Shown: positions 19,781 through 53,551 of the stretch, in pieces
Layout: each line of letters opens with the position of its first letter
Position numbering within the stretch: position 1 is the first letter of the stretch
Origin: Candidatus Woesearchaeota archaeon
GTDB lineage: Archaea > Nanobdellota > Nanobdellia > Woesearchaeales > JAZDKJ01
Assembly (NCBI GenBank): GCA_043803105.1
Contig: JAZDKJ010000006.1
Span: forward strand, 352,001 to 416,000
Length of the DNA stretch: 64,000 nucleotides
Direction of reading: 5' to 3'
The notes under the pieces: generated by a model
What the model saw: only the letters and a program-made list of their open reading frames with translations
What the model was told of the DNA's origin: nothing
Database searches by the model: none
Position numbers and translations under genes: made by a program

Positions 19781-19900
19781 AAGCTTTTTTCCTTAGGAAA
19801 AAACCTTGGAAAATATGTTTTTGCCAAGGCAAAAACGCTGCCTTTAAGGCAGCTAAAGTTGCGAGCTGACTTTTCAGCTCAGCTATTGAGCTACTCAGGG
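19781..19900 (-). repeat. Duplicated tRNA-Tyr 5' end plus four-hairpin leader
   Basis: 19881-19900 matches tRNA nt 1-20 at 18/20; followed by GAGCTGAAAAGTCAGCTCGCAACTTTA and three more palindromes. Confidence 0.8.
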
Positions 19901-19998
19901 ATAATTCAATGAATAACAAACAAGGGTCTTTTTATAAACATTTCTTATCTCTGTGTGTGCTTCTTTCTTCGGAACGACTCAGAATTTTGCTATTGCTA

Positions 19999-20358
19999 TT
20001 AGTGTACAATTCTCATTTTTCCAGCCATGACTAAATTGTGCTCAATCTCTAGCTTGTTGAATCTTTTTTCCATCGCTAGGATCTTATCGACTTTTTGCTC
20101 TGTTTGCTCTACACCGTTCTTTATCTTACCTAATTTGTATGCTCCCCCGAGAATCGAAATGCCTCCTCCAAGATATGGTATCATCTCTACCCACACTGGA
20201 GAGCGCACAATTCCAAAAACCTTAAGCAGCGCCCACAGGAGTATTGCCAGTGCTCCTATGACAATCAGGGAATCCCAGAGGTCAAAACTTGCGTTGAAGA
20301 GTTTTTTTAGCTTTTGAATTGTCCTCATGCTGGCAGCAATAATAAAAAGGTCGTTCAT
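19999..20358 (-). CDS. Small two-TM membrane protein with C-terminal coiled coil
   Basis: Two hydrophobic segments; start uncertain. Confidence 0.6.
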   Translation of the reverse strand: MNDLFIIAASMRTIQKLKKLFNASFDLWDSLIVIGALAILLWALLKVFGIVRSPVWVEMIPYLGGGISILGGAYKLGKIKNGVEQTEQKVDKILAMEKRFNKLEIEHNLVMAGKMRIVH

Positions 20359-20425
20359 AAACTTTTGTCTTCGATAAATCCAGATTGTATGAATGAGCCG
20401 TAAATCTTCCGAAAGTCACAACATC

Positions 20426-22375
20426 TTATTTCTGCGGTTCGCTCGATGTCCAGTCCTGCTTGCACATGTTGTCGATTGCAGAGTATGCAAAGCTGCCCAG
20501 AGTATAGTCGAGAAGTTTCCATGTCAAATCTCCTGCCAGGGCCTTGTTTGCCTGCTGTTGGGCTTCCCTCTCTGCTATTGCTTTTTGCTCGGCAGGGTCA
20601 TTGTATGCTCCTGCAGTCTTCGCACTCAACACACTGGCGTATACTATTCCATCCGTACCGAGCACTGTTTTTTCCCCACTTAGTGCTATCCTTTCAGACC
20701 TGATTGGCCCACCCTCATCAAATGTGTACTCTGTAACCATGGCCCCTGCTTGTGCAATATAGGTGCTTGATATTGCTCGTGTTGGAGGTGGAAAACTTTG
20801 TGGTGTACACACAGTGGGAGGAAATCCCTGCTTGACATATGCACCGTAAGGATACTCACTGTTAGGTTCTTGGTATTGGTAGTCCTGTTGTGCAAAATAG
20901 ACTTGGGTGAGTGTAGGATCCTGCGCAGCTTGGCTGGCGCTTATGTCTATGATATTTATATCCGGATATATTGTGCTTTTCCAGCAGTTGCAGTTTGTAT
21001 TGAAATGGTAAGAACCTTCTGATGCTATGCTTGATATCTTCCCGTTATACCCGTTTTGGGTTAGGTCAGTTTGGAGTGTAAGATAGCTCATCCCTGATTT
21101 TAGGAGAGGGGTGTTGCCCCCAGCCACAATATAGTAACTGTATTTACCTTCCTTGTCAGTTGCAGATTGGCTATCAATTTTGCTTATTATTATCTGCCCC
21201 TTGTTCCCGTCAAAAACAACCCCTGCCTTCACATCATCAACCGTAACTGAAGGTTTGACTACCTGTCCGTTCTTCGCTACCCCATCATACATTTTGTCTC
21301 CATTCTTGTCAACCAATCTGTAATTATAGGGCACGGGTCTTCCAGACAACCTGTTCTTTATGTCCTCAAAGTGCAGGTCAGTGCATGTTGGTTCATTAAA
21401 GCTCGTTGACATCCAGTTCCATGACTCTGTTACCTGTGATATCATTCCAGGAATGTTGGTGAGCTCCATCAATTTCAATACGCATTTTGGTATGGCTGCC
21501 TGCTTGATGATTTCTCCCAGCTGGCTTGCAAGGTATTTTGCCAGGATTGACATAAGTATCTTAGCCACAGTCTTTAGTATAGAACCTTTCCAGTACATGC
21601 ACAGCGCTTCATCTAGTTGTTTCTCGCATGCCTCTGTTGATATTCCTGCGGTGCACGCCTGTTCGATGCAGCAATTATACACCTGGTAGATTGTCTTGAG
21701 CTTTCTTATGTTAAATAGTATTGCAACTGGGCACAGGCAGTAAGTTGCAGTGTAGATGTTCTCATAAGGATTCAGGTGGAAATCTCCGATAGCCAGGTTT
21801 CCGTACCCTCCGCCTGTTGTTGTCTTTCCAACTCCAACCGTGTTGCTCAGGCTTTCAGAGTTCTGTCCTAGCACCGGCACGTTCTTCACTATTCCTCCGC
21901 ATCCAAACTTTCCTGTGCACCAGCCGCAGCTTACAAGACAGCACAATCCCTGCACTACCGGCAATTTGTACACGCTAGACCATGCCTTAAACACTTTTTG
22001 CATTGCTATGCAAAGTTTGGTGCCAGTGAGTAGTCCAAGCAGGCAGCAGTCCCCTGCCTCGTCTCCTGAGAACCCTATTAAGCTTGATATTGCCGATAGC
22101 ACGATGTCTATGGCGCTCATTACAGTGCATATCATGAGCATTATTGACGCTACGCTCTCAAGCGTTCCTATTACTCCATTGTCAAGCGAGTCAGCTATGC
22201 CTGAGCTTTTCTTGTGCTTCTCAATGCACTGCTGTCCAGCCTCAAGGTCTGTTGTGCCAGTTTCCTCTGTTGCCTTACCAGTAACTGGATTTACCTCTGC
22301 AAATGCGATTGAAGTGCAAAATGGGATGCTGATTATGAGAAAGATTAGGATTTTGGCTACTTGCTGTTTTATCAT
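20426..22375 (-). CDS. Large Cys-rich secreted/membrane protein
   Basis: Signal peptide; many Cys (CC, CxC, CGWC) and amphipathic helices in the N-terminal half. Confidence 0.7.
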   Translation of the reverse strand: MIKQQVAKILIFLIISIPFCTSIAFAEVNPVTGKATEETGTTDLEAGQQCIEKHKKSSGIADSLDNGVIGTLESVASIMLMICTVMSAIDIVLSAISSLIGFSGDEAGDCCLLGLLTGTKLCIAMQKVFKAWSSVYKLPVVQGLCCLVSCGWCTGKFGCGGIVKNVPVLGQNSESLSNTVGVGKTTTGGGYGNLAIGDFHLNPYENIYTATYCLCPVAILFNIRKLKTIYQVYNCCIEQACTAGISTEACEKQLDEALCMYWKGSILKTVAKILMSILAKYLASQLGEIIKQAAIPKCVLKLMELTNIPGMISQVTESWNWMSTSFNEPTCTDLHFEDIKNRLSGRPVPYNYRLVDKNGDKMYDGVAKNGQVVKPSVTVDDVKAGVVFDGNKGQIIISKIDSQSATDKEGKYSYYIVAGGNTPLLKSGMSYLTLQTDLTQNGYNGKISSIASEGSYHFNTNCNCWKSTIYPDINIIDISASQAAQDPTLTQVYFAQQDYQYQEPNSEYPYGAYVKQGFPPTVCTPQSFPPPTRAISSTYIAQAGAMVTEYTFDEGGPIRSERIALSGEKTVLGTDGIVYASVLSAKTAGAYNDPAEQKAIAEREAQQQANKALAGDLTWKLLDYTLGSFAYSAIDNMCKQDWTSSEPQK

Positions 22376-22377
22376 TT

Positions 22378-24549
22378 CTAACTTACCTCTGGCGCAACAA
22401 ACTGTGAATAATCGTTAACTGTGTAATCTACCTGTTTTGTCTTGCCGTCGCAGTTATCATCGACAGTGATCTTTCCGCTTAGCCTGCTGCCATCAATGAC
22501 TGTCTCAGTGATGCTGTTTACCTCAAGGTTCTGGTCTGAGAGGAAATCCACCATGCAGTAGAATTTTATTTTGCTGCCCCTTAGGCTGGTTGCTTTCCAT
22601 CCAAAGTTCCCGTTGCCAATTATCCAAGGTCCTTCGTAGTTGGAATGCGTCAAGGGATTGTTGTCAAAGTCCACTGTCACTGTGTTGTCTCCTTCTTTAT
22701 AGGTTGAGGGCTTTATGACCACGTTGCCTTTGGCCAGCATTCCCACCCGATAGTTTCCGCTTCCTATTATCATGCTCTTCATTGTTGGGTATAGGACAGT
22801 AGGGTTTGCAGACGCCCCGTTTATTGATATTGTTATCTCGTCTTTTGGCCTTGGCTGGTAGCGTGTTTCCTGCAACATTTCTTCAGGTGTTTTTCCGCAG
22901 CTGCTTCGTAAATATCCATTTGTCAGATAATAGTTCTCCAGGAATTTTCTTGCAAGCACAAGCTCCACTTCAATGCTGTAATTCTTCAGTTTCTCCAGTT
23001 TGTATTCGCTTTTTACAGCATCAACAATCGTGCTGTAACCTGCCTTCTGCAACTTAAGCTGGAGCCCTGCGCATTTCGGCAGCTTTAAGGAGGCTCTGCC
23101 GCTGGAGGCTGTCTCTCCTGCATCGCATTCGTTGATTGTGTTGTTGCATTGGAATCTGACACCAACTCCAGGCAATAATCCTGTTTCATTCGTTGTGACT
23201 ACACTAGCCTGCGTGCTTACGTTGTTGCAGTCAAAGACACTTTTCATGGTCTCGCTTCCGAAAAATGCTGTCAGGTTCACTTCGCTATATGGATTCTGTC
23301 CAGTGCACTGCCTGTTCTGGTTTCCGCACAGGAAGAGTTGCATCGGGAAATAAAACGAGAAGCCCTGTTTTTCCTGCACCAAATTACCAATAATCTTGGC
23401 AGAATCGCTGTCTGTGATTTTTATCACCACAGGATGTGTCAAGAAGTACTTGAACCTGTAATCATAAATGCAGAAGCTTGGGAGGAATGGTATGCTTGTC
23501 TGCGATTCCTTGTCCGGGCTAATCACGTTGCCGCTTGTGGGTTTGATGTCAAATTTGTTATCTGATTGTGCAGGGTAACTGAATTCTACGCTTATTGAGC
23601 TAAGATTTTCGAAATAATTCCTGATAAAGCTGTCATAAACTCCCTGGACTGAAGCGTCGTTTGAAATCACTCTTTCAAACTTTGTTCCGGCCATCTTTAG
23701 GTATGGAAAATTTTTTGAAAGTATGCCTTCAAGATTTTCCTTGACTTCATCTTTCGTCCATGTTACGTATTTGCAATCTGTGCTTGAGTCAGAGAAGCTG
23801 AACGGCGGAAGGTCTTTTGCTCCCTTTTCTGCCCCGGTATAGCTGTACAGAGAAATCAGTGACTTTGCGTGGTCTTCAAGATAAGTGTCTGCAAACTCTC
23901 TTGTGACTAATTCCATAGCTATCTCATGGATCAGCGCCAGGTTTACATCCACCTGATAATTGTAGTTGTCCACTTCATACTGTTTTTCGTTCTGTGTGAT
24001 CTGGATTGGCCAGTGAAGATCAATTGTTGCCTGTTTGCCGAACCTCACTGTGGTGTTTATTGTTCCAGTCTTGATAACATAACTTTTTTTTCTGAAGACC
24101 TCAAAGTCCGTGCATCTCGGCAGGTTTTCTGTGATGTATCTAGCTAGCTCATTTTGCATGTAATCTGTTGAAGGTACAGAAATCGAATCTTCGGTGATCC
24201 AGTAAGGGACCTTGTTCTTTCCTGTGGCGTCAATAACCTGAATCATGCTCCCAGTTTTAACCACAGTCCTATCGCCGCTTATGCCTGTTGTTTGTAGCTC
24301 GGTAGGAATGTATATGAACCCCGCCTGAAGCCCAAGGATTTCTATTCCTGAATTTGCATAATCACTTAGACACTGTTCCACATATGTCTTAACCTGTTGA
24401 GCAGGCTCTGCAAGTTGTAATGCCCTTACCTGTTCGACCTGGATTGGCTGCTCTGTTGTTCTTGCCCAGCTAAAGTAGAAGATTGCCGCAGCTATCAGCA
24501 TGATTATTCCGATGATTATGAATATGGTTATCTGTCCTCTTTTTTCCAT
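22378..24549 (-). CDS. Large extracellular protein with class III (prepilin-type) signal peptide
   Basis: MEKRG|QITIFIIIGIIMLI; VKTYVEQCL...LGLQAG. Confidence 0.75.
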   Translation of the reverse strand: MEKRGQITIFIIIGIIMLIAAAIFYFSWARTTEQPIQVEQVRALQLAEPAQQVKTYVEQCLSDYANSGIEILGLQAGFIYIPTELQTTGISGDRTVVKTGSMIQVIDATGKNKVPYWITEDSISVPSTDYMQNELARYITENLPRCTDFEVFRKKSYVIKTGTINTTVRFGKQATIDLHWPIQITQNEKQYEVDNYNYQVDVNLALIHEIAMELVTREFADTYLEDHAKSLISLYSYTGAEKGAKDLPPFSFSDSSTDCKYVTWTKDEVKENLEGILSKNFPYLKMAGTKFERVISNDASVQGVYDSFIRNYFENLSSISVEFSYPAQSDNKFDIKPTSGNVISPDKESQTSIPFLPSFCIYDYRFKYFLTHPVVIKITDSDSAKIIGNLVQEKQGFSFYFPMQLFLCGNQNRQCTGQNPYSEVNLTAFFGSETMKSVFDCNNVSTQASVVTTNETGLLPGVGVRFQCNNTINECDAGETASSGRASLKLPKCAGLQLKLQKAGYSTIVDAVKSEYKLEKLKNYSIEVELVLARKFLENYYLTNGYLRSSCGKTPEEMLQETRYQPRPKDEITISINGASANPTVLYPTMKSMIIGSGNYRVGMLAKGNVVIKPSTYKEGDNTVTVDFDNNPLTHSNYEGPWIIGNGNFGWKATSLRGSKIKFYCMVDFLSDQNLEVNSITETVIDGSRLSGKITVDDNCDGKTKQVDYTVNDYSQFVAPEVS

Positions 24550-25271
24550 ATGAACCTCTCTGTGTAATGAGCATAATAGTTTCGTGCCCAGCTGATTAGT
24601 GGCAGTGCTATCATAACCATCACTAACAGCTTGAAGAACTGGTCTAATCTAGGGAGCACAAGAAATCGCAATATCACAACCATGAATCCTATCACCGCGT
24701 AGGGAACCACAAATTTATGGAACCTGCATCCAGTCCAGAAAAGCGCCTTGATGGATTTTTTTATGCTCCGCGTTCTGGCATAAGAGAAAAGTATAATGGT
24801 GTTGAAGTGCAATGTAGCCATCCCAATGATGACAAACAGGACATTATTATTCAGTTTGATTATTGAAAACAAGGCAATTACGATTGCGACACATAACAGG
24901 CCATAGTTGAGCAACGCCATTTGCCAGAAGTCTTTCAAGGAAAATCTCGTGCCAACCAGCCTGCTCCATATAATCCCTTTGAAGAGGCTAAACTCCGCTA
25001 TTGCTGCCACAAAGAACAATCCTATCAAAATGAACAGCGTCGAAAGAAAACCTGCCAGCATATGTAACTGTTCCTGCGCATGGGCTGGGTCAATTGCTGC
25101 ATTTAGGTTTACCGGCGTGGTTGCCCTGACTGTCAATGCCCACACAAGAAAGGTGCAGAATAGCGTAGCATAGAAAAGCAGGTCATAGCCATAGGCCACT
25201 AGAATCTTCTTGACTTCAAGACTTTGCAGAAGAACCTTAAGTTCCTGCTTAAAATACCCTCTTTCAGTCAC
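24528..25271 (-). CDS. Polytopic membrane protein
   Basis: About six hydrophobic segments. Confidence 0.65.
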   Translation of the reverse strand: MTERGYFKQELKVLLQSLEVKKILVAYGYDLLFYATLFCTFLVWALTVRATTPVNLNAAIDPAHAQEQLHMLAGFLSTLFILIGLFFVAAIAEFSLFKGIIWSRLVGTRFSLKDFWQMALLNYGLLCVAIVIALFSIIKLNNNVLFVIIGMATLHFNTIILFSYARTRSIKKSIKALFWTGCRFHKFVVPYAVIGFMVVILRFLVLPRLDQFFKLLVMVMIALPLISWARNYYAHYTERFIWKKEDR

Positions 25272-25297
25272 AGATCTTTCTCAGACTGCAGCCCTAT

Positions 25298-26005
25298 TTA
25301 TATCTTTTTATGGATGTCCTTTACCTTGCCGAAATCCAATATTTCTCCATCAGAGACCACATAGGCCTCAAAGTCCCGGATTTTATTGTATGGTCCTAAC
25401 AAATCATCGCTTGTGATGTCAGTTCCGTAGCTGGCTGAGCTGAATGATGGCATCACTATCAAGTCTGCCTTGCCATATTTTCCCTTCAGAAAACACTTGT
25501 AAGTCTCTGCCCTGGCCCCTTCCCTGATGGTTATTGCAGGATGCATATGCCCGATTATTATTGTCTTTGCTTTCTTTGGAATCTTCTGCTCGACATGCCC
25601 ATGCATGAGAAAGACATCATCTATCATTATGTTGTCCACTATCCGTACATTCTTTTTCTTTGCTATTGGTTCGAGTATGATGTCATGGTTGCCCTTGATT
25701 AGCGTGACTTTTGCTGACTTGCTTAAAAGATCAAGCACCTTCATTGTCTCTCTCCATTCCTGGCTAGACACCTCTCCAAATTCGTGCTTGACGTCGCCAT
25801 TTATGATGATATGTTCTGGTTTTGTTTTTGCCATTATCTTTTCGAGTTGTTTCAATAATTCGCGGAGCTGAAACCTAGGTATGAAGAAGCCCTGCTTGTT
25901 CAATGCCTCCTCAAAGCCAATGTGCAGGTCAGAAATGACCAGTGTCTTACATTTCTTAAGGTGCAAGGCAAGGTCGATTATCTCGATTCCAGGATGTATT
26001 TCCAT
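25298..26005 (-). CDS. Metallophosphoesterase (calcineurin-like, Lhr-associated type)
   Basis: SDLHIG, GDVKH, KGNHD, MHGH, GHMHP, MPSF. Confidence 0.9.
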   Translation of the reverse strand: MEIHPGIEIIDLALHLKKCKTLVISDLHIGFEEALNKQGFFIPRFQLRELLKQLEKIMAKTKPEHIIINGDVKHEFGEVSSQEWRETMKVLDLLSKSAKVTLIKGNHDIILEPIAKKKNVRIVDNIMIDDVFLMHGHVEQKIPKKAKTIIIGHMHPAITIREGARAETYKCFLKGKYGKADLIVMPSFSSASYGTDITSDDLLGPYNKIRDFEAYVVSDGEILDFGKVKDIHKKI

Positions 26006-26076
26006 GAGCTGTGCAAAACCAGGTGGCTATAAAAGCTTTAGTAAAAAATATAAACCCTGATTGCCCGCCTTGTATT

Positions 26077-26433
26077 ATGAGAGAAACACAGGAGATAATA
26101 AAGAAATTCAATGATGAGCGGGCTTGGAGCACCCCACACAGCATCAAGGACCTGATGCTTAACATGAACGAGGAGATCGGCGAGTTCTGGACCTTGATAA
26201 AATAGGTTGACATCCCAACTCAGCAGAGGCTCATAAAAGAGAACAAAGCTGAGGTCGAGAATTTTGTTGGTGACATGATTTATCTCATCCTCAAGATAGC
26301 CTATCTTTGCGAAATAGATTCCAAAAAGGCCATTGATGATGTAATGCAGGAATATGAGATGCGCTTCCCAAAGGAGCAGACTAAGGGCAGGCACGGCAAC
26401 AAGCTTGCAGGCGGCATCGACCTTAAAGAATAA
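26077..26433 (+). pseudogene. MazG-like/dCTP pyrophosphatase interrupted by in-frame TAG at 26203-26205
   Basis: KFNDERAW..EEIGEFWTLIK*VDI...EVENFVGDMIYL...EYEMRFP continues in frame to TAA 26431-26433. Confidence 0.75.
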
Positions 26434-26435
26434 AT

Positions 26436-26567
26436 TTATTCCAGCACAAAGCCGCACTTCTTGCAGAACAATTCATCATTTTCAAAGACTACGCTGTCGC
26501 TTCCGCACTCAGGGCAGGTCTTCTCCTTGTCCTCGTTCTTCAAGTCATTAAGTGAGTGCTCATTCAT
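26436..26567 (-). CDS. TFIIB-type zinc-ribbon microprotein (43 aa), not in ORF track
   Basis: ..KTCPECGSDSVVFENDELFCKKCGFVLE; ATGA coupling to the upstream gene. Confidence 0.75.
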   Translation of the reverse strand: MNEHSLNDLKNEDKEKTCPECGSDSVVFENDELFCKKCGFVLE

Positions 26568-26737
26568 TGCTCTTCCTCTTCAAGCATTTTTTTAACCCTT
26601 CGTGCCTTTTCTTCGACTTTTTCCAGGAGCTCAAGGTCGCTGAAATTCTCTTTTGCACAGCTGTCGCAATAATAGTCAGAAGTGTCCTTTATCTGGAACT
26701 GGGCATCGGTGCCGCAGATGATGCATTTCTTGGGCAT
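26564..26737 (-). CDS. Small zinc-finger protein
   Basis: MPKKCIICG...YYCDSCA; start moved to ATG 26737. Confidence 0.7.
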   Translation of the reverse strand: MPKKCIICGTDAQFQIKDTSDYYCDSCAKENFSDLELLEKVEEKARRVKKMLEEEEQ

Positions 26738-26807
26738 GAGATTCTTACAATGTTTGTGCTGCTTAAAAAGGTTTTGGTTTTGCTTTTGCGGTTTTAAGTC
26801 GACAGAA

Positions 26808-27083
26808 TCATTCAAGCCCAAAGGATTCGACAAACTCTGTGATCAGTTTGTACTTGTTCAGGTATTCGTATCCCTTTTCGGTTAGCGAGTAGGTTCTTCC
26901 GTCCTTTGTGGTGTGCTGTACCATGAATCCTTTTCCCATGAGTTCAGTCAGGTACTCGTCCATCATGACATGGGAAAGGTTTGATTTGTAGAGTATGTGT
27001 GTGGGCTTTATTCTGCCGTCTCTCTCCCTTATGGCATTCAGGATGTCATGTATTACCTGAAGCCTGTCCCGCTTCTTGCTCAT
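26808..27083 (-). CDS. Winged-helix transcription regulator
   Basis: KRDRLQVIHDIL..PTHILYKSNLS..YL..L..Y.LTEKG. Confidence 0.85.
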   Translation of the reverse strand: MSKKRDRLQVIHDILNAIRERDGRIKPTHILYKSNLSHVMMDEYLTELMGKGFMVQHTTKDGRTYSLTEKGYEYLNKYKLITEFVESFGLE

Positions 27084-27742: not shown

Positions 27743-27879
27743 TTATCCTTGATAAACAGTCTGCCTTTTTTAAGGTTTATGGAACATTCTTTCAGAATAA
27801 TCTTCAGTATAACTCTTTAACAACGAATAAATAAAAGCCTTTGCTATTGATTTCTAACAGCTAAATGGAGGTGGGTGTA

Positions 27880-27999
27880 ATGAAAACCCGTCAAGACTAT
27901 ACGCATGAATTGAAGGCCAAGGAGGCAAGGATATCTGCATATGAGCCTGACTACATCAGGACAATTTATGACTTTGACTTTGAGGAGGTGCAAGCATGA
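27880..27999 (+). CDS. 39-aa small ORF
   Basis: SD GGAGGTG upstream; MKTRQDYTHELKAKEARISAYEPDYIRTIYDFDFEEVQA. Confidence 0.55.
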   Translation: MKTRQDYTHELKAKEARISAYEPDYIRTIYDFDFEEVQA

Positions 28000-41689: not shown

Positions 41690-41849
41690 GATTCAAACTA
41701 ACTTATCAGGGTATTTAAAAATTGTGTTGTGTTCATGCCTGCAAAAAGCTGCCTTGCCAGTCAGATTGACAGGCTCAGGCAAAAAGCATTAACTTTATAA
41801 ATCACTGGTCGGCTCTGTACAATAATCAAGGAGCAGTACACTTGACCTT

Positions 41850-41931
41850 ACAATCATTGGGGCTGCGGGGGAGCTGCGAAGTCAGCTCGCACCTTCGTGG
41901 GACATAAAGTCCCCCTGACATCACAATCAAT
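41850..41931 (+). repeat. Duplicated tRNA-Pro(TGG) 5' end plus hairpin leader
   Basis: 41850-41870 vs 41923-41943 19/21 identical; GAGCTGCGAAGTCAGCTCGCACCTT; GGGAC-ATAAA-GTCCC. Confidence 0.8.
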
Positions 41932-42048
41932 GGGGCTGTGGGGTAGCTTGGTCTAGCCTATCTGGTTTGGGGCAATGCAAAAAACCAGATGACCCCGGTT
42001 CGAAAGTTTTATAAAAGGCTGATTAACTCGAAAATCCGGGCAGCCCCA
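41932..42048 (+). tRNA. tRNA-Pro(TGG) with two introns (~12 nt anticodon loop, ~30 nt T-loop)
   Basis: GGGGCTG...TCTGGTTTGGG[..]ACCAGATGACCCCGGTTCGAA[..]TCCGGGCAGCCCCA. Confidence 0.92.
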
Positions 42049-42052
42049 CTCA

Positions 42053-42146
42053 TGTTCGTGGTTGGTCTTCCCAATGGGAAGACGCACCCTTTAGGGTGCC
42101 GATGCAGTCAACAGGCATTTCTGTTGATCCGGGCCGCCCCCACTCA
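42053..42146 (+). repeat. Hairpin trailer plus duplicated tRNA-Pro 3' end
   Basis: ATCCGGGCCGCCCCCACTCA (42127-42146) vs ATCCGGGCAGCCCCACTCA (42034-42052), three palindromes between. Confidence 0.75.
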
Positions 42147-42198
42147 GTTTTGTTGGCTAAAAACATGGGAAAACGCTGCACAAAGGGCAATTCGCAAA

Positions 42199-46261: not shown

Positions 46262-46309
46262 CGAAAGCATTAAATACGAACCAAGAAACAAGGTTCAAAG
46301 GTGAGATTT

Positions 46310-46537
46310 ATGGCAAAGAAGAATGAATCAAGCAATGACGAGCAAATCGGTTTTCACAAGGGTGCCCTTTCCACACTCGCAAAGGAGCGTGAGGAGATGG
46401 CAAAGATTCTGTCCATTGTCGAGCAGCTTATGCAGATGCACGTCAAGGCTCTAAAGGAACTTGGTGTTGACCTTGCTGCCCAGGCAAAGGAGTTTGAGGC
46501 AAAGCAGAAATCCAAGAAGATTGATGATATGTTATGA
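46310..46537 (+). CDS. Conserved small helical protein
   Basis: EQIGFHKGALSTLAKEREE...H.KAL.ELG; SD GGTGA. Confidence 0.65.
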   Translation: MAKKNESSNDEQIGFHKGALSTLAKEREEMAKILSIVEQLMQMHVKALKELGVDLAAQAKEFEAKQKSKKIDDML

Positions 46538-46923
46538 AGGTTTCTTTTTCTGCTTTTGGCCATCCCAACATCACTGCAACCCACAAGACCACTTTAGAGA
46601 TAACAAGCGATTCTGAAGTCTCAGCTTCAGGAACGTGCATTATCGGAGTTAGGGCAAAGATTCCTGACCTGAGATGTTTTCTTGACAAGCCCTCGATTAT
46701 CATATTGCTCAAGGTAGCTGGACTGGAGGACAAGATAAGATGTGTGCCGAACCCCTCGTTTCAAAGTGATAAAGAGCTGGTTGTTAGGATGGGAGAATTC
46801 AAGTCACCAAGGACATTTGGGTTAAGGGCTGACAAGGCTTCAAGACACATTGACCGGAGGATTGCGCAATTGCTCAAGGATAGTTCAATGCGCCTTCAAA
46901 TTGAGGTGACTGATGAGGCGTAA
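46534..46923 (+). CDS. DUF371 family protein
   Basis: GHPNITATHKTTLEIT...GTCIIGVRA...ADKAS. Confidence 0.88.
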   Translation: MKVSFSAFGHPNITATHKTTLEITSDSEVSASGTCIIGVRAKIPDLRCFLDKPSIIILLKVAGLEDKIRCVPNPSFQSDKELVVRMGEFKSPRTFGLRADKASRHIDRRIAQLLKDSSMRLQIEVTDEA

Positions 46924-47371
46924 GCAGCTCAGTAAGGCAGAGATAAAGGAGTTCGCAGATAAGCTCTGTGCCCTATACCCTGGTTATCAGCTTTCAAAAA
47001 AAGACCAGGTCGAGTTGGTTGACGAGAAGATCATTCTTATCAACAGGCAATCCTCTTTCTTCCTGCGTGAAGGCGTTCCTGTTCCAACTCTCAGGCTGCT
47101 TTTGAAGAATCAATTTCTTAAGACCTTAGTGGTTGATATGGGCGCTGTTGGGTTTGTTGCCGAAGGCGCTGATGTGATGCGGCCAGGAATAGTTGGTTTC
47201 GACAATGACATAACTGAAGGCGAGTTTGTTGCAGTCGTTGACTTGCAGAACCGAAAACCGCTTGCTGTTTGCCAGGCTGTTATGTCCTCAGAACAATTGA
47301 AGTCGACCGGCTCGGGCAAGTCGTGCAAGAACCTGCATCATGTAGGGGATGAGATCTGGTCCGTTACTTGA
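46913..47371 (+). CDS. PUA-domain RNA-binding protein (Tma20/DUF1947-like)
   Basis: PTLRLL, VVDMGA..FV..GADVMRPGI, NLHHVGD.IW. Confidence 0.88.
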   Translation: MRRKQLSKAEIKEFADKLCALYPGYQLSKKDQVELVDEKIILINRQSSFFLREGVPVPTLRLLLKNQFLKTLVVDMGAVGFVAEGADVMRPGIVGFDNDITEGEFVAVVDLQNRKPLAVCQAVMSSEQLKSTGSGKSCKNLHHVGDEIWSVT

Positions 47372-47807
47372 TGCGTCTTGTCTTTGGCACATAGTTCAAT
47401 ATCCTTCCCTGTCTTGCGCTTCCGCAGCCAAGATAATGTTCCTTATGTTTCACGATCACAAATCCGTCCTGGCATTCCTTTTCTAAGTCAAAGCCTTTCA
47501 GCCAGCTCATTTCTTCCTGTTCATTCACTTCAACAATATTTTTTGTTGCGCCTGGGCCTATGATTTGGCTTCCTTCCATTGACAGCCTAAGCCTTTCGTG
47601 TGTTATCTCTCCGAAATAAAGCCCTACAGAATTGATTCGTAGCGCCTTTAGCTCTATCAACCCAAAATCCCGAGTGGTTAGGAAAATCCTTGACTTGTTG
47701 TTCATCAGGAATACGTACTCAAGTTTTGCCTTGAATCCCCATTGGTCTTCAAGGAGCACAGCTATCTTCTTTATTTCATGGGTGTTTAATATACTAAGGT
47801 TGTCCAT
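47364..47807 (-). CDS. NIP7/RsmF C-terminal PUA-like protein
   Basis: SVGLYFG...LRLSMEGSQ.IG..A.KN...LGCG...NYVPK.RR. Confidence 0.7.
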   Translation of the reverse strand: MDNLSILNTHEIKKIAVLLEDQWGFKAKLEYVFLMNNKSRIFLTTRDFGLIELKALRINSVGLYFGEITHERLRLSMEGSQIIGPGATKNIVEVNEQEEMSWLKGFDLEKECQDGFVIVKHKEHYLGCGSARQGRILNYVPKTRRIK

Positions 47808-47811
47808 AATT

Positions 47812-48012
47812 CTATGAGTTTAGCATTCCATCCATTGTGTCATGTACAACTTCCTTGAAAGTCCTGTACTCGTTAGGGTCTATAGCCTTCTGATAGAGCG
47901 CTTCAAGCACAGCACAACCCACAGACATCCCATATTTAATGCTACCTGCTTCAGGAAGCGCTGCCAGCACAGCCACTGAGTTCACTATTGCTGCTTCAAG
48001 GTTTACATCCAT
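47812..48012 (-). CDS. Hypothetical protein
   Basis: 66-aa ORF with upstream TTTAAATA. Confidence 0.4.
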   Translation of the reverse strand: MDVNLEAAIVNSVAVLAALPEAGSIKYGMSVGCAVLEALYQKAIDPNEYRTFKEVVHDTMDGMLNS

Positions 48013-48098
48013 ACAAACCTTTCTCTCAGTGTGATATTTAAATATTTAGTTTCATTCAAACATAAAAGCTTAAATATCCATTTTAACAGTATATCCTT

Positions 48099-48716
48099 AT
48101 GAAGAAGCTGGTTGCCTTTGCCTTTCTCCTTGTCCTTTTGGCCTGCGTTGTGAAAGCTGCAGGAATCTCAGTCACTTATGCCTATATCGAGCTGAACGTG
48201 ACTAATGAGCCTCCGAGCATTGTCTCTCTATCTGTTGGAGACCCTGTGGTGTACGAGGACTCGGAAATTGTCTGCAACGCCACGGCTTTAGACAGGGAAA
48301 ATAATGATATCAATTATCATTATTCTTGGTCTATAAACAATCAGCCTGTTGCAGAAACCGGCCGCGTGTTTCATACCGGAGCGTTAAAGCCAGGCGATTC
48401 TGTGAGTTGCATTGCTGTTCCTTTTGACATGTTTGCAAACGGCACTTCTGCTGTTGCCTCAACAACAATCCAAGACATGCCTGTCGCAGTGAGGGCAGTT
48501 AAGCAAGGTCTCTCCCTTGTTGGAGTTGACGCAAAAGCACAAGCAATCTCTGGAGCTACACAAAGAGGCCTGCTCGCCACAACCGGTTTTGTTGCTGGAC
48601 AGGTTTCTTCAAGCACTGCCGGCTCTGTTGGTTTGCTCCTTGCCATTGTTGCTTTTCTTGTTTTCCTGAACCTTAACCTTGCCCTAAGGTTGAAAAAGAA
48701 GCTTTCTCGGGGTTAG
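48099..48716 (+). CDS. Membrane-anchored Ig-like surface protein
   Basis: Signal peptide, NEPP..C.AT..D....Y.YSW, TG-motif and C-terminal TM. Confidence 0.65.
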   Translation: MKKLVAFAFLLVLLACVVKAAGISVTYAYIELNVTNEPPSIVSLSVGDPVVYEDSEIVCNATALDRENNDINYHYSWSINNQPVAETGRVFHTGALKPGDSVSCIAVPFDMFANGTSAVASTTIQDMPVAVRAVKQGLSLVGVDAKAQAISGATQRGLLATTGFVAGQVSSSTAGSVGLLLAIVAFLVFLNLNLALRLKKKLSRG

Positions 48717-48747
48717 CTTTATAACAACAAGCGCACTGCCAAGATTC

Positions 48748-49095
48748 ATGGGTATCGATAATATTGCAAACGAGATTATGAAATCACACTTTACAGTTAT
48801 TGACCTTGGCAAGGAAACTGATATCTCAAAACTCTGGGAAACACTTCTTATCATAGCTGCTTCTAAAAAACCTGTTTATATCCTCAAAGAAGCAGGCTTT
48901 GAAGGAGCAATTCCAGGCGGCTTGCTTATCAAGCGCATGATTACCTATGAGGGTCCCGAAGACTCGGCATCACATAAAGAAGCTAGCAGGCAGCTCGAGT
49001 CATGGGCAAGGATAGAGACCAATGCAGAACCTATCAGGGAATTGTTTGACCATTTCCCTGCATGCCTGTTGCACAAAAAGCTTATATACCATTAG
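48748..49095 (+). CDS. Hypothetical protein
   Basis: 115-aa ORF with upstream TTTATAA. Confidence 0.5.
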   Translation: MGIDNIANEIMKSHFTVIDLGKETDISKLWETLLIIAASKKPVYILKEAGFEGAIPGGLLIKRMITYEGPEDSASHKEASRQLESWARIETNAEPIRELFDHFPACLLHKKLIYH

Positions 49096-49110
49096 GCTTT
49101 TTGTTCTGCC

Positions 49111-49422
49111 ATGGCGATTTCTTACAAGCAAAGATGCATGCGGTGCAAAAAGAATATGGTCATGGTGACTTCAAGGACTTTTTTCCCAGTCTGTTACGAT
49201 TGTGAAAAGAATGATTTGCATGGTCTGGTCAAGAACCCTAAGATGAAAAAGCTCTTTAATATTCCAGAATCCTTCTATGTAGAGAATACTTTCCTGCGCT
49301 CAATAAAGATCAATTACCTGAAGTTTGGCAGCCTCTCAGAAAAGCAGATTGCAAGCTTCAAGAAGACTGTGGAAGAGTTAAAGAAAAAACCCGTAAGCCT
49401 CATACCCCCCAGACAGGGTTAG
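49111..49422 (+). CDS. Conserved zinc-finger protein
   Basis: CMRC...CYDC; FLRSIK.NY...G.LSEKQ. Confidence 0.65.
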   Translation: MAISYKQRCMRCKKNMVMVTSRTFFPVCYDCEKNDLHGLVKNPKMKKLFNIPESFYVENTFLRSIKINYLKFGSLSEKQIASFKKTVEELKKKPVSLIPPRQG

Positions 49423-51163
49423 ATTTTCTCATTATTATGGCTATCTCTTTCAAGACCTCAGTCTCTTCACGGCCAAGAAGCTTCCTGTACTCCTTTAGTT
49501 TTCGGAAATCATCCTCAGGCACCGAGCTGTAAAGTGTGTCTCCTTCTTTTATCTGTCTTCCAACAGTGAGGTGCTCAAGGCTCACCGCAACCTGCTTTCC
49601 CCGCTCAGCTTTCTCAAGGTTTTCCTGCTCTGCTTGTATGCTTTTTATCCTGCTAATCTCCTTGCCTTGCGCGTTCATTACAGGCATTCCTGTTCTTATT
49701 GTCCCTGCCTCCACCTCTACTCCTACTACTGCAGGATTGTTTTGCCTGAAAACATAGCCTTTCATGAGTTTGAATTTTGCCGGCCTGACCACCTTGTCCA
49801 GTTCTCCCAGCTCTTGTTTCTTTGACATCTCCTGTTTCCATGCCTCAAGGTCTTCCAGCAGTTTATAGATTATGTCGTGGACTATCACCTTCACATGGTC
49901 CAGGCACAACCCTGATTCGTCCTTGACATTGAACCCGAGCACCACTGCCATCAGCGGATCTTTTTCATAGTTGCTTTCCGCTTCCATAAGGTCTTTTCTC
50001 GTTATCGGCCCAACCCCTGCCTTTCTTATCTCGACTCCGCCGTCCTTCAGGAGCTTGACCATAGCCTCCATGCTGCCAAGCGTGTCTGCCTTTACTATTA
50101 TTCCTTCCTTGTTTGTTTCAATTAGTGCCTCGCTTATCTCGCGCATTATTTCTCTGCTGGTTTTCTCCAGGTTCTGCTGGCTTGTTGCCCTGATTGGCAT
50201 TCCTGCTATCGCTGTCTCAATGTCCGGTGCAGCAATCTTTACCCCTGTCGCTGCAACTGCTTTTCTGACCTTTGTGTATTTTGCCTTTTTGTCTCGCATC
50301 TCTTCAAGTGGCAATGGTTCAAGAAGAGCCTTAACTTTTGTTATGATGGGTTTCTCTATGCCCCCAATTACTATGATATCATTTACCTTGAGGATCCCAT
50401 CGTATATGATCACATCGATTGTTGTACCAAAACCACGTTCCTCCTTCACCTCGAGGATTGTTCCCTTGGCTGGTCCGCTTGCATCAATTTTTAGGTTGGT
50501 TTCAAGGTATCTTTGAGCTAGGCCTGTTAGCATTACGAGGAGTTCTGGTATGCCCTCTCCTGTTTTTGCAGATACTGGGACGATGATTATTTGTTTTGTA
50601 AAGTCCTCTACTCTGTCATATCTTTCAGAATTAAGGCCGAGCTTGCTTAATTCTCCCAGTATCTGATAGACTCTCTTGTCAAGCTGCTCTTGCACTGAAC
50701 TGCTCTGCTTGCTTATGTTCTCCAGCAAATGCTCTGCCTTATGCTGCCAGCCTGCAATTAAGTCTATCTTGTTCGCAGCGACAATAAATGGTGTCTTGCT
50801 ATGCTTGAGTATCTCTATTGCCTCGACTGTCTGTGGCTTGAATCCCTCGTTGACATCGATAACCACAATTGCGATGTCAGCTAGGCTGCCTCCTCTCTTT
50901 CTTAGGCTTGTGAATGCAGCATGCCCTGGAGTGTCAATGAAAAGAAGGCCTGGTATCGTGAATTTTGTGTTGAGCGCTTCCAGCAATGGGCCGCATATCT
51001 TCTTTATGACTTCAAGCGGTATTATTGAAGCGCCTATTGCCTGTGTTATCCTTCCCGCTTCTGTCTCAACTATGGCAGTGCCCCTGATCTTGTCTAGCAG
51101 GCTTGATTTTCCATGGTCCACATGCCCAAGCACTGTGCATATTGGGCTTCTTATCTCTGGCAT
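49400..51163 (-). CDS. infB: Translation initiation factor aIF5B (IF-2)
   Basis: GHVDHGKS, DTPGH, NKID, KADTLGSMEA. Confidence 0.97.
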   Translation of the reverse strand: MPEIRSPICTVLGHVDHGKSSLLDKIRGTAIVETEAGRITQAIGASIIPLEVIKKICGPLLEALNTKFTIPGLLFIDTPGHAAFTSLRKRGGSLADIAIVVIDVNEGFKPQTVEAIEILKHSKTPFIVAANKIDLIAGWQHKAEHLLENISKQSSSVQEQLDKRVYQILGELSKLGLNSERYDRVEDFTKQIIIVPVSAKTGEGIPELLVMLTGLAQRYLETNLKIDASGPAKGTILEVKEERGFGTTIDVIIYDGILKVNDIIVIGGIEKPIITKVKALLEPLPLEEMRDKKAKYTKVRKAVAATGVKIAAPDIETAIAGMPIRATSQQNLEKTSREIMREISEALIETNKEGIIVKADTLGSMEAMVKLLKDGGVEIRKAGVGPITRKDLMEAESNYEKDPLMAVVLGFNVKDESGLCLDHVKVIVHDIIYKLLEDLEAWKQEMSKKQELGELDKVVRPAKFKLMKGYVFRQNNPAVVGVEVEAGTIRTGMPVMNAQGKEISRIKSIQAEQENLEKAERGKQVAVSLEHLTVGRQIKEGDTLYSSVPEDDFRKLKEYRKLLGREETEVLKEIAIIMRKSNPVWGV

Positions 51164-51309
51164 ATTCTCTGCATATTTTGGGCTGTATTTAAAGGTTTTC
51201 AGGATACAAGGAAAGTTAGGATTTCATGTCCTTTTGTAATTTCTTCAGAAGGCAATCCACACCTTGTAATATATTATCTTCTTGAGGTTTTCAATATCGA
51301 TAAATTTTG

Positions 51310-51463
51310 CGCCCGGTCAGGGATTTTCACTTGATGAGATTTGAACTGTCAGAAATTCACTGAATTTCTGAGCATGCTCGGAAACATAGTTTCCGACACC
51401 TGGAGACCTGTGATGGTCAATTGCTTTTCAGGCAACCGCGATACCCGATTACGCTAGCCCGGC
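51310..51463 (-). pseudogene. tRNA-like gene: Ser-type body (long variable arm, G73) with GAA anticodon, mismatched acceptor stem, 52-nt T-stem insertion and ~16-nt T-loop intron
   Basis: GCCGGGC-TAGCGTAATCGGGTATCGCG-GTTGC-CTGAAAA-GCAAT-TGACCATCACAGGTCTC-CAGG[52]GTTCAAA[16]TCCCTG-ACCGGGC-G. Confidence 0.7.
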
Positions 51464-51673
51464 CTCGCACATTTCTAAATTGACCTGAACCTTAATATGT
51501 TCAATTGAGAATTTTCCGTAAGTTCTGCGACAAAACCGAGCAAAATCTTATATACCAGAATGCTTACAAACTTTATGACCTGCGATTTAATTACCTGATT
51601 ACGCGAGCCCTTTTTATATAGTATTTTCTGTAGATTTGACCAATGGCTCAAGTAGCCTTGGCCAGAAATAAAA

Positions 51674-51875
51674 TGGGGCTGCTGGGATTTCCATGCTTCT
51701 AGGACGGTCTTTTGGCATCAGCCAAAAGCCTTTTCCCAGGTTTTTGCATATTGCAAAAAGCTGTTTGGACCCAGATTAGGAGGTTTTCCGCTGAAAACCT
51801 TAGGTCAAATGCCCCGAACCTCCAGTGATAGTTTCTCGAAGAGTTTCTCTCTTCTCCAAGTTACACTACAGCCCC
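51674..51875 (-). tRNA. tRNA-Pro(CGG) with three introns (~24, ~28, ~76 nt)
   Basis: GGGGCTGTAGTGTAACTTGG[..]CTATCACTGGAGGTTCGGG[..]ACCTCCTAATCTGGGTCCAAA[..]TCCCAGCAGCCCCA; T-loop reads TCC instead of TTC. Confidence 0.85.
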
Positions 51876-52076
51876 ATAGGTTGAACTGGAAAGCCACACT
51901 GTTGTATGACCTTCCTATAACTGCTAAACAGCAGGGTGTTAAAAAGGTTGCGATGGAACGTAACGATGTGATATATTAGAATTTTATGTGCCTCTTACCC
52001 TTCAGCAATGTGCAGATTCTGCTAATTAAATTTATATATAAAGAACTGTTTTATTGTTGCAATCGCTTGCATCACT

Positions 52077-53210
52077 ATGGATAACAGAGCAAAATTTGAA
52101 CTTATAACGAGAAATTTAGAAGAAGTACTAACACCTGCAGATTTAATGAAACTCATTGAAAATGATGAGCCTTTAAAGCATTATATTGGTTTTGAAATAA
52201 GTGGTAAGGTGCATCTTGGAACTGGACTTATGTGTATGTCCAAAATTAAAGACTTCATGGATGCAGGTGCGGATGTTTCTGTGTTTCTTGCTGACTGGCA
52301 TAGTTGGATTAATGATAAACTTGGTGGAGACAGAGAAGTTATCAAAAAAATTGCCGTCGGATATTTCAAAGAAGCGATGAAGGCTAGCCTTCTTTGTCTT
52401 GGTGGTAATCCTGAAAAAATAAGATTTGTACTTGGTACAGAACTTTATCACAATAATGACGATTATTGGGCAACCATGATTGATGTAAGTAAAAATACGA
52501 CTCTAGGCAGGATGACTCGGAGCATTACAATCCTTGGAAGAAAAGAAGGGGAGGGAGTTGATTTTGCAAAATTGATCTATCCTGCAATGCAGGTTTCAGA
52601 TATTTTTGTTCAGAAATTGAACATACCTCATGCAGGAATTGATCAAAGGAAAGCGCAAGTTATTGCAAGAGAAGTTGCTTTAAAAATGAAAGTAAGTCAA
52701 ATTACTGATAAAGAGGGTAATAAAATTAAACCCGTTGCCCTGCATCATCATCTGTTACTAGGTCTTGGCAAACCCCCGGTATGGCCTGTTCCTCAAGATA
52801 AATTACAGGATTTATGGTCATCAATGAAGATGAGCAAGTCCAAGCCGGACACTTGTGTTTTTGTTCACGATAGTCCTGATGAAATTAAAAGAAAGATTGC
52901 AAAGGCATTCTGCCCTGAAGGTGAAACTGTGTTCAATCCAGTACTTGATTGGGCTAAATATTTATTGTTCAGAGAGACGACTGATGAACTTATAGTAAAA
53001 AGGCCTGAAAAATTCGGTGGAACTGTTATATATACAACTTACGAAAAACTTGAAAAAGATTTTGCAGACAAAAAAGTTCATCCAATGGACCTTAAAGATT
53101 CAGTTGCTGAAAGTTTAATTAAACTACTTGAACCTGCAAGAATCCATTTTGAAAAACCTGAAATCAAAAAGACGTTGGATCAGCTTAACAAGCTCATAAC
53201 CACAAGGTGA
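52077..53210 (+). CDS. tyrS: Tyrosyl-tRNA synthetase
   Basis: YIGFEISGKVHLGT, LADWH, IYPAMQVSD, GIDQRK, KMSKS, HPMDLK. Confidence 0.95.
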   Translation: MDNRAKFELITRNLEEVLTPADLMKLIENDEPLKHYIGFEISGKVHLGTGLMCMSKIKDFMDAGADVSVFLADWHSWINDKLGGDREVIKKIAVGYFKEAMKASLLCLGGNPEKIRFVLGTELYHNNDDYWATMIDVSKNTTLGRMTRSITILGRKEGEGVDFAKLIYPAMQVSDIFVQKLNIPHAGIDQRKAQVIAREVALKMKVSQITDKEGNKIKPVALHHHLLLGLGKPPVWPVPQDKLQDLWSSMKMSKSKPDTCVFVHDSPDEIKRKIAKAFCPEGETVFNPVLDWAKYLLFRETTDELIVKRPEKFGGTVIYTTYEKLEKDFADKKVHPMDLKDSVAESLIKLLEPARIHFEKPEIKKTLDQLNKLITTR

Positions 53211-53296
53211 TTTTATTCCTTTTTGTATGTTTATTCTAGATAGTTAATATTAGAATACAAAATTTCAGGATTAGCCTAAAATGTTTTATGCTTCTT

Positions 53297-53317
53297 TTCG
53301 AATTCCGGTCGGACGCA
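53297..53317 (+). other. Isolated tRNA 3'-end-like fragment
   Basis: TTCGAATTCCGGTCGGACGCA resembles a T-loop plus acceptor 3' strand; no matching 5' part nearby. Confidence 0.4.
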
Positions 53318-53340
53318 TTCTGGTTTCATCCTCAAGCGTA

Positions 53341-53404
53341 AGTGATAGTTGCTTCAGGCAACCGAGCGAACTGGTTGGCGCTGGCCAAGTTACACTACAG
53401 CCCC
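53341..53404 (-). pseudogene. 5' fragment of tRNA-Pro with a different 36-nt D-loop intron
   Basis: GGGGCTGTAGTGTAACTTGG[36 nt]CTATCACT; both exon pieces identical to tRNA-Pro(CGG) at 51674-51875. Confidence 0.8.
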
Positions 53405-53551
53405 GTTGATTGTTATTGTTTCGCGAAGCTCACAAGAAACCTGATAGTTTCTTGGGAGTCCCAAAAAACTTCAAGTTTTTTGTGACGAAAGGCGACTGAA
53501 AGGAGTGTAAAGGTGCCAGCTGACTTCTCAGCTGAGTAGCACTACAGCCCC
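53405..53551 (-). repeat. Further tRNA-Pro 5'-end copy (12 nt) plus hairpin leader
   Basis: GGGGCTGTAGTG at 53540-53551, then CAGCTGAGAAGTCAGCTGGCACCTTTA and a four-way palindrome at 53430-53485. Confidence 0.75.

Follow-up and report, generated by a model that had tools for sequence, protein, structure and literature searches.

Here, we examine short hairpin modules that lie beside and within tRNA genes of a Candidatus Woesearchaeota archaeon, starting from a 64,000-nucleotide (nt) stretch of its genome (GCA_043803105.1, contig JAZDKJ010000006.1, positions 352,001 to 416,000; hereafter “the window”, whose own coordinates are used below). This genome, here G000, is 96.5% complete; among the relatives compared, G001 belongs to the same genus and G008 to another family. 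ARAGORN predicted 0 tRNA genes in the window, and Rfam at its gathering threshold yielded a single match, tRNA-Tyr at 19654-19780(-); the remaining tRNA genes were read by hand because each holds several insertions. A reading of the sequence alone (the “sequence-only reading”) had proposed that three tRNA loci share one arrangement, in which a degenerate copy of the gene’s own 5′ end is followed by a conserved hairpin motif and further palindromes. This description was borne out: the motif, AGCTGNNNAGTCAGCTNGCANCTT, occurs with 0 mismatches at all three loci (19856-19879(-), 41872-41895(+), and 53510-53533(-)), against a mean of 0.04 matches in 100 dinucleotide-preserving shuffles, none of which reached three. 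At each locus the real tRNA 5′ end lies on one side of the motif and a degenerate outer copy of it on the other, palindromes come after the motif, and a TATA-like box can be seen by eye upstream of the outer copy. The motif is the 5′ hairpin of a non-coding module of ~45–100 nt, which we term family A (a second family, B, is described below). The features of the three loci are as follows:

19654..19780 (-): tRNA-Tyr(GTA) with a 57-nt anticodon-loop insertion; its nt 1-20 form the inner copy (Rfam RF00005, 54.6 bits)
19781..19816 (+): family-B-like piece in the opposite direction, AAGCTTTTTTCCTTAGGAAAAAACCTTGGAAAATAT on the + strand, abutting nt 1 of tRNA-Tyr (by-eye comparison with family-B starts)
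19817..19880 (-): family-A module at tRNA-Tyr (covariance-model match, E=2.6e-7; fold)
19881..19900 (-): degenerate outer copy of tRNA-Tyr nt 1-20, with C4 to T and G18 to A (sequence)
19928..19939 (-): TATA-like box GTTTATAAAAAG, ~30 nt upstream of the Tyr outer copy (by eye)
41793-41803 (+): TATA-like box, ~56 nt upstream of the Pro outer copy (by eye)
41841..41870 (+): outer copy comprising 18 nt of flank and nt 1-12 of tRNA-Pro(TGG), with U8 to C (sequence)
41871..41913 (+): family-A module in minimal form at tRNA-Pro(TGG) (covariance model, E=8.8e-9)
41932..42048 (+): tRNA-Pro(TGG); introns in the anticodon loop (12 nt) and in the T-loop at 59/60 (read by hand)
42057..42126 (-): hairpin spacer between two copies of the tRNA-Pro(TGG) 3′ end (sequence)
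42127..42149 (+): degenerate outer copy of the 3′ end plus trailer of tRNA-Pro(TGG), with the inner copy at 42034-42056 (sequence)
53297..53404 (-): tRNA-Pro(GGG)-like 5′ fragment ending in the T-loop (TTCGAA) at 53297 (intact paralogue on contig C7)
53405..53534 (-): family-A module at the tRNA-Pro fragment (covariance model, E=5.9e-8)
53535..53551 (-): GGGGCTGTAGTG (+CTACT), outer copy of the Pro-fragment 5′ end (sequence)
53578-53589 (-): TATA-like box, ~27 nt upstream of the third outer copy (by eye)

The outer copy at tRNA-Tyr is identical to the gene at 18 of 20 positions. At tRNA-Pro(TGG) the identity is 25 of 30 (41841-41870 vs. 41914-41943, flank included, so that the inner copy with its flank begins at 41914), and the 21-nt copy originally described there proved to be the core of this 30-nt duplication. 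At the Pro fragment, GGGGCTGTAGTG at 53540-53551(-) matches 53393-53404(-) in 12 of 12 positions. The three modules open with hairpins GAGCTG-AAAAGT-CAGCTC (Tyr, 19863-19880, then GCAACTT and two more perfect hairpins), GAGCTG-CGAAGT-CAGCTC (Pro(TGG), then GCACCTTCGT and a second hairpin, GGGAC-ATAAA-GTCCC), and CAGCTG-AGAAGT-CAGCTG (Pro fragment, then GCACCTTTA and more palindromes). The Tyr spacer has a counterpart at tRNA-Met (C8:119662), where a family-A module is likewise followed by a reversed family-B piece. In tRNA-Pro(TGG), the 3′ end is doubled as well (42034-42056 vs. 42127-42149); the 70-nt spacer between these copies begins CAACAG-AAATGC-CTGTTG on the minus strand and continues with two hairpins, an architecture that is family-A-like and has no model match. 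The third tRNA is indeed a fragment, as first read: its sequence breaks off at 53297, inside the T-loop, with no 3′ acceptor strand to match it within 500 nt. Its outer copy (53535..53551) together with 4 nt of flank is identical in 26 of 27 positions to a further fragment at C7:11479, and its inner flank, carried by the module, resembles the flank of tRNA-Pro(TGG).

Beyond the window, family A can be recognized as a core of ~45–62 nt composed of hairpin 1 (a 6-base-pair (bp) stem with loop NRAAGT), GCAMCTT, and hairpin 2, often with more hairpins appended. Hairpin 2 is frequently GTGGGTTTC-(small hairpin)-TCAAGCCCAC, and in G000 often GGGAC-ATAAA-GTCCC. A pattern search of G000 and 61 relatives gave 8 matches in G000, against 0 for the reversed pattern used as control, and the pattern was present in 7 of the 61 relatives. 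A covariance model built on hairpin 1 and GCACCTT from 18 copies found 9 copies in G000 and, across 151 genomes of the order, was positive in 21, spread over many families. The co-variation first noted for the closing pair holds and extends further: in 38 distinct copies from the 21 genomes, 99.1% of hairpin-1 cells pair, 4 of 6 pairs are altered on both sides (21 cells), and no G-U intermediate occurs. None of 500 shuffles scored as high for covariation, and slid registers were also far below. The top and bottom strands of the module fold equally well (n=37, Wilcoxon p=0.14). An Rfam search of eight loci at E<=1 and of the window at the gathering threshold returned tRNA-Tyr alone. A looser scan for a hairpin plus GCA gave 85 matches vs. 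16 for the reversed control, the AAGT loop being found in none beyond the known copies. Two G001 loci (L014, L018) carry a second small hairpin, ACGG-CAAAGT-CCGT, ahead of the CAGCTG hairpin, and a tRNA 3′ spacer of G000 (C12:77168-77241, minus strand) begins AACGG-CCAAGT-CCGTT; judging from these sequences, what is really conserved may be the loop NNAAGT.

Comparison of orthologous sites within the genus separates insertion from inheritance. In G001, tRNA-Tyr and tRNA-Pro(TGG) each have a TATA-like box ~30 nt upstream. The former is empty, and the latter, which is followed after 7 nt by the next open reading frame (ORF), has no module at either end and also does without the 3′ hairpin spacer seen at G000 42057..42126. 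Conversely, tRNA-Lys(CTT) of G001 is filled (a 13-nt duplication plus module) and its G000 orthologue (C6:335475) is empty. Such filled/empty differences within one genus reflect insertion, not ancestry, and the empty orthologous sites for which the sequence-only reading had called were thus found at tRNA-Tyr and at both ends of tRNA-Pro(TGG). In the other family, tRNA-Tyr of G008 is filled at the same D-loop position by a module of G008’s own subtype; more generally, modules resemble each other more within a genome than across orthologous sites. The third locus lies next to a gene at 52077-53210(+) for a class-I aminoacyl-tRNA synthetase (KMSKS motif; Tyr/Trp type by eye). A closer relative (L077) gives no clean empty site there because this synthetase gene alone, 94% identical in nt, is common to both, the flanking tRNA-Pro fragment and tRNA-Pro(CGG) being absent from the shared part.

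Beside these filled and empty sites, we considered where family A resides. By eye, the ~39 loci fall into 9 sense modules at tRNA 5′ ends, 11 antisense modules at tRNA 3′ ends, 4 tRNA introns, 3 protein-gene sites with a duplication, and ~12 intergenic or unclear cases. The sense cases comprise six in G000, namely Tyr, Pro(TGG), the Pro fragment, Met, C6:316718, and C12:115179 (a tRNA-like target, uncertain), along with Lys of G001, Tyr of G008, and one in G108. The antisense cases are C6:533671 in G000, two in G008, one each in G009, G051, G111, G104, G028, and G119, and two in the unpublished genome G132. The expected association with tRNA 5′ ends stands for the nine sense loci; the same module also occupies 3′ ends, introns, protein genes, and intergenic DNA.

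The layout of duplicated sites is fixed. In the direction of the module, a truncated copy is followed after 0–8 nt (17 in G001) by the module and, after a further 0–17 nt (58 once), by the gene-joined copy, and in 22 of 22 duplicated sites inspected by eye hairpin 2 faces the fuller copy of the gene. The duplicated stretch, 12 to ~135 nt long, starts a few nt outside the gene end and ends inside the gene. Its inner limit falls in the D-arm when a 5′ end is duplicated and, in most cases, in the T-arm when a 3′ end is. In one G008 case (L019) the duplication (~70 nt) takes in a T-loop intron, and in another (L015) it covers the final 31 codons and 3′ flank of a protein gene. In G137, an 86-nt duplication plus module, 48 codons in total, stays in frame within an intein-like segment; there, the copies agree at 50 of 50 positions beside the module but at only ~64% of the 36 nt farthest from it, and each still encodes a similar peptide. 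Tandem arrays occur in G009, G119, and G129 and at C6:3038xx. Overall, an unbiased list of local direct repeats in G000 contains 139 entries, mostly within repetitive protein genes; from this list and other sites, by eye, at least 15 tRNA loci of G000 have a duplicated end.

The G137 gene (L023, G137:C68, 750-3032(+)) is an ORF of 761+ aa, and its intein-like segment, named by eye as are its parts, starts with Cys and ends in ...HNFIANDIIAHN; the interior stays open, and by eye a PIN-like plus antitoxin-like gene pair lies on the opposite strand. The region of C12:115179 (L006) contains an RNA gene with acceptor-like ends, GCGGAGG ... CCTCCGC, and several insertions, whose 3′ end is doubled 22 nt apart and which Rfam does not recognize. 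G008 has a rod-like RNA gene of ~200 nt in at least 8 copies (GGCTCTGTCCGGAATCT...CCGGACAGAGCC), each preceded by a TATA-like box and followed by a T-run; in three copies (L072 and L074 on C2, L069 on C8) a family-A module is inserted without duplication. We had considered these three contig-end copies as the ends of a large element and rejected this, as they are insertions in the multi-copy RNA gene.

In the four intron copies, the module lies at T-loop position 59/60 (tRNA-His of G000, G098, and tRNA-Met of G018) or at anticodon-loop position 37/38 (tRNA-Gly(CCC) of G070), the motif begins within 3 nt of the intron start, and there is little or no flanking repeat. Predicted removal restores a 7-nt loop, TTCAAAT in the three T-loops and TTCCCAA in the anticodon loop, across a bulge–helix–bulge (BHB) with an outer helix h of 5–6 bp, a 4-bp central helix H (TTCA/TGAA or TTCC/GGAA), and two 3-nt bulges; the inner helix h′ is weak or offset, and a relaxed search yields chance solutions too. 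Judging from these folds, the loop copies are predicted to be ordinary archaeal BHB introns. The T-loop intron of tRNA-Pro(TGG) in the window is similarly framed (CCCGG-TTCG-AA/A ... CGAA-AA/T-CCGGG). A strict T-loop BHB scan of G000 gave 13 matches, 12 of them in tRNA genes, and these 12 introns start with CAGCTTTTT in 5 cases and GAGCTGA in 3. Most tRNA genes of G000 hold 2–3 insertions, in the D-loop, anticodon loop, and T-loop. Since G000 has both a splicing endonuclease gene (C4:37141-37398) and an RNase P RNA, processing of the modules appears feasible. At non-palindromic loops (UUCC, UUCA, UCCA), the 3′ end of the intron complements the loop sequence instead of repeating it (GGAA for UUCC, UGGA for UCCA); inverted ends, seen in some intron copies only, form the intron helix.

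Family A is not alone in this behavior: judging from sequence, G000 has three or more hairpin families, A, B, and C among them, that act alike. Family B begins CAGCTTTTTT and contains AAAACCTGGGAAAA, often with CAGAAAACC-N3-GGTTTTCTG-GCACGCC, and is found as T-loop introns in tRNA-Leu, in tRNA-Pro(CGG) of the window, and in others:

51674..51875 (-): tRNA-Pro(CGG) with three insertions; its T-loop intron (51688-51763) is a family-B module (read by hand)

This intron begins CAGCTTTTT, and its 3′ end, TGGA, matches the gene’s unusual T-loop, TCCA. Family B also accompanies end duplications: a tRNA 3′ end present in three copies at C6:3038xx-3040xx, a 27-nt duplication at C12:123975, and one of 45 nt of a Gly-like 5′ part on C13. 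Family C, ACAGAAC-N3-GTTCTGT-RGTCRC, comes after a duplicated 5′ end in three tRNAs, and its D-loop position is the same in all of them. At C8:150831 of G000, a family-B module directly follows ...GGATTAGATA, which we take to be a conserved 16S rRNA stretch; the module family may also be an rRNA intron. In addition, tRNA-Pro(CGG) (window 51674-51875(-)) and tRNA-Pro(GGG) (C7:13023-13290), on different contigs, have ~100 nt of near-identical upstream flank, and either the genes were duplicated with their flank or the flank is part of an inserted element.

Given these patterns, we think it somewhat probable that the modules are non-autonomous insertion modules that survive either as introns or by duplicating their target. 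They would be DNA insertions landing mostly in tRNA genes and, because they encode nothing, would act in trans. An insertion in the T-loop (59/60) or anticodon loop (37/38), bounded by a BHB, would become an archaeal intron. With an insertion close to the end of a gene, the segment between the insertion point and a site just beyond the gene would be doubled, leaving an intact gene on the 3′ side of the module and, on its 5′ side, a decaying fragment with the old promoter or terminator. The duplication could be created by the insertion or brought along with it, either through fill-in of widely staggered breaks or through Campbell-type recombination of a small circle on which the module travels with a copy of the target end. 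The identity pattern in G137 and the likeness of the Pro-fragment flank to that of tRNA-Pro(TGG) speak for the latter route, or for a secondary recombinational spread. The enzyme might be encoded by the host or by a virus, and 5′ modules might be removed with the leader by RNase P or bypassed via an internal promoter. The mini-element reading first suggested for these loci was broadly right but too narrow, the finding being larger than first noted. A non-autonomous insert in tRNA genes that leaves an intact 5′ end agrees with the empty G001 sites and the lack of an integrase-like ORF nearby, and the window itself, as stated at the outset, has no transposase or integrase (0 matches to RVT_1, Phage_integrase, or Y1_Tnp); the supposed specificity for the D-arm and 5′ end does not hold, 11 of the 20 tRNA-end cases being at 3′ ends.

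Several observations weigh against this reading. No enzyme for module movement came out of the searches for reverse transcriptases, Y1 transposases, and adjacent integrases. RVT_1 had 0 matches in G000, 96.5% complete as assembled; a reverse transcriptase might be carried by an unassembled virus or plasmid. Y1_Tnp showed no co-distribution with family A (~7 of the 21 positive genomes vs. 56 of 151 overall) and is missing from module-rich G008 (7 copies), from G001 and G009, and from the single-contig genome G017. The duplication has no fixed length, in contrast to those that known transposases make at their targets, and the G137 pattern, as read from its sequence, is a better match to recombination with a diverged copy than to duplication and later drift. 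Simple target duplication fails to explain the spliceable intron copies because the intron 3′ end complements the loop. Copies inside one genome are diverged, and no recent jump was caught. Finally, the context classes were assigned by eye, and G000 has only 6 tRNA genes above the Rfam cut-off.

A broader version, which we regard as possible though short of probable, would make the modules the vehicle of archaeal tRNA (and rRNA) intron gain and the end duplications the footprints of the insertion reaction. A module landing in a loop able to form the splice motif would become a BHB intron and elsewhere would be tolerated only together with a duplicated target end; the reaction would be polar, target-primed or Campbell-like, without reverse transcriptase, and would prefer tRNA genes.

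Among other explanations, the one that best withstands the data, while still unlikely in our view, is that these loci are scars of integrase-mediated integration of the SSV/pNOB8 kind, by which viruses or plasmids enter tRNA ends and double the att core, and whose interior was lost, the module representing element termini or a minimal attP moved in trans. Direct tRNA-end repeats with a distal fragment and a proximal intact gene are a hallmark of such integration, and 20 tRNA-end cases are present here; the tandem arrays would fit repeated integration and the G137 pattern recombination with a diverged copy. G000 also has four tyrosine recombinases, three of 413–431 aa and one of 275 aa (XerA-like by length only), and one of the larger integrases (C6:520267) adjoins tRNA-Leu, with no second copy of the tRNA-Leu 3′ end near it. 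The regions around these integrases have in common only the integrase and one 42-nt hairpin match. On contig C7 (L068, C7:10800-14000, positions 684-2490), a tRNA-Pro 5′ fragment with a TATA-like box lies 1.5 kb from the intact tRNA-Pro(GGG). This 1.5-kb interval contains, by eye, a RelE-like/antitoxin-like pair and a 66-aa ORF like an integrase N-terminus, and from its sequence the stretch may be a classical decayed integrated element. Against this, the C7 junction has no family-A model match (the best, E=0.18, is elsewhere), and tblastn with the four G000 integrases returned no integrase-like ORF in the 1.5 kb around any of the 52 motif loci. The site specificity of tyrosine integrases also contrasts with ~9 different targets in one genome and their differing duplicated sequences, deletion would have to leave the same 45–60 nt each time, and the same module forms T-loop and anticodon-loop introns with little or no repeat. 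Moreover, the stem covaries within one genome, which points to a folded single strand and not to a fixed protein-binding palindrome.

We then considered whether the modules are selected RNA structures, which we judge improbable. They could act as processing leaders or trailers, close to the structured leader or decoy for tRNA processing that the sequence-only reading had offered as an alternative, or the outer copy and module could form an alternative exon spliced to the tRNA body, with the duplication needed for the splice motif. The 5′ modules have a TATA-like box before them and the tRNA after them and are therefore probably transcribed, the hairpins covary, the module is a predicted intron elsewhere, and the acceptor strand of an outer copy might remain able to pair with the 3′ end (at Tyr, C4 to T gives a G-U pair). 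However, orientation to the tRNA differs (9 sense vs. 11 antisense), both strands fold equally well with no G-U in hairpin 1, and outer copies have changed where tRNAs are conserved (Pro, U8 to C; Tyr, G18 to A), so that the leader or decoy idea has no support. Same-genus orthologues do without the module, and the T5-T6 runs inside the Tyr module would probably terminate transcription in archaea. A strict scan for a BHB joining the outer to the inner copy found none at tRNA-Tyr, the sole end locus scanned; the scan is conservative because it missed the Tyr anticodon intron, which has a relaxed motif.

Of similarly low probability, in our estimate, are local rearrangements, in which hairpin-rich spacers would stall replication and cause template switching by highly expressed tRNA genes, the shared motif being due to common descent or gene conversion. 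Variable duplication length, tandem arrays, and perfect palindromes are typical of slippage, and the greater likeness of modules within a genome than between orthologous sites is as expected with gene conversion; yet the same 45–60 nt core recurs at unrelated loci in 21 genomes of many families, within an intein reading frame and in T-loops as well, with strict polarity (22 of 22) and clean empty sites. That the duplications are assembly artefacts is very improbable: these are metagenome-assembled genomes and 12–30 nt repeats can mislead assemblers, but the layout recurs in at least 11 independently assembled genomes and at different genes, the two copies differ, and the spacers are unique sequence.

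Insertion modules of this kind share features with several known systems. Miniature inverted-repeat transposable elements (MITEs) and the hairpin elements of the IS200/IS605 type (PATE/REP-like) are, like the modules, short, non-coding, multi-copy, and palindrome-rich, and are moved in trans if at all. MITE target duplications are fixed in length and IS200/IS605 elements make none, whereas the modules as a rule lack terminal inverted repeats, come with target duplications of 12 to ~135 nt, do not co-occur with Y1, and show a strong bias for tRNA genes. Shared with target-primed insertion of short and long interspersed nuclear elements (SINEs/LINEs) are variable-length duplication, polarity, and a flank apparently carried on the 3′ side (the Pro fragment); in the modules, the 3′ end joins an AT-rich site outside the gene and the 5′ end lies at a variable distance. 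In contrast to SINEs/LINEs, no reverse transcriptase was found in G000, there is no A-tail, and the 5′ ends are exact and not truncated.

In archaea, PMC3293823 describes a 44-bp repeat of SSV1, a 5′ fragment called tRNA-Thr-F, and an integration model for a Caldiarchaeum tRNA-Thr. The tRNA-end direct repeat, distal fragment, and reconstituted proximal gene resemble the SSV/pNOB8-type elements and the Caldiarchaeum model, as do, for the latter, the tie between intron gain and the event and the scattered tRNA fragments. SSV/pNOB8 elements are kilobases long and carry an integrase; by contrast, the modules span 45–130 nt, carry nothing, have no integrase-like ORF within 1.5 kb, hit many targets in one genome, and are themselves introns. 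Transposition of tRNA introns is known from the Thermoproteales (Fujishima et al. 2010, via PMC4090602), its mechanism being called still unknown in that review; those introns are likewise BHB-bounded, and their movement is thought to be at the DNA level. Compared with the introns as that review presents them, family A differs in also lying outside the mature tRNA, at 5′ and 3′ ends with a duplicated gene end, in occupying protein genes and intergenic DNA, in belonging to a DPANN lineage, and in having clean empty sites in the same genus. The titles and abstracts returned by literature searches contain no description of such modules; end duplications may be tabulated in the supplements of Fujishima 2010 and Sugahara 2012. 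The modules differ from both archaeal cases in being tiny and non-coding, in their presence at many targets in one genome, and in occurring as introns as well as end insertions.

Taken together, these modules explain why standard tools see almost no tRNA genes in G000. With 2–3 insertions in most of its tRNA genes, standard annotation would therefore score most tRNAs as missing, and the tRNA fragments flagged here could be taken by annotation for genes or split halves. A 2026 preprint on Asgard tRNA genes (10.64898/2026.10.13.758758) states that how introns arrive remains open. Since the same family occurs in three states, as predicted spliceable introns, as end insertions with a doubled target, and as empty sites in the same genus, it offers a testable system of intron gain, and the modules may show how archaeal tRNA introns arrive.

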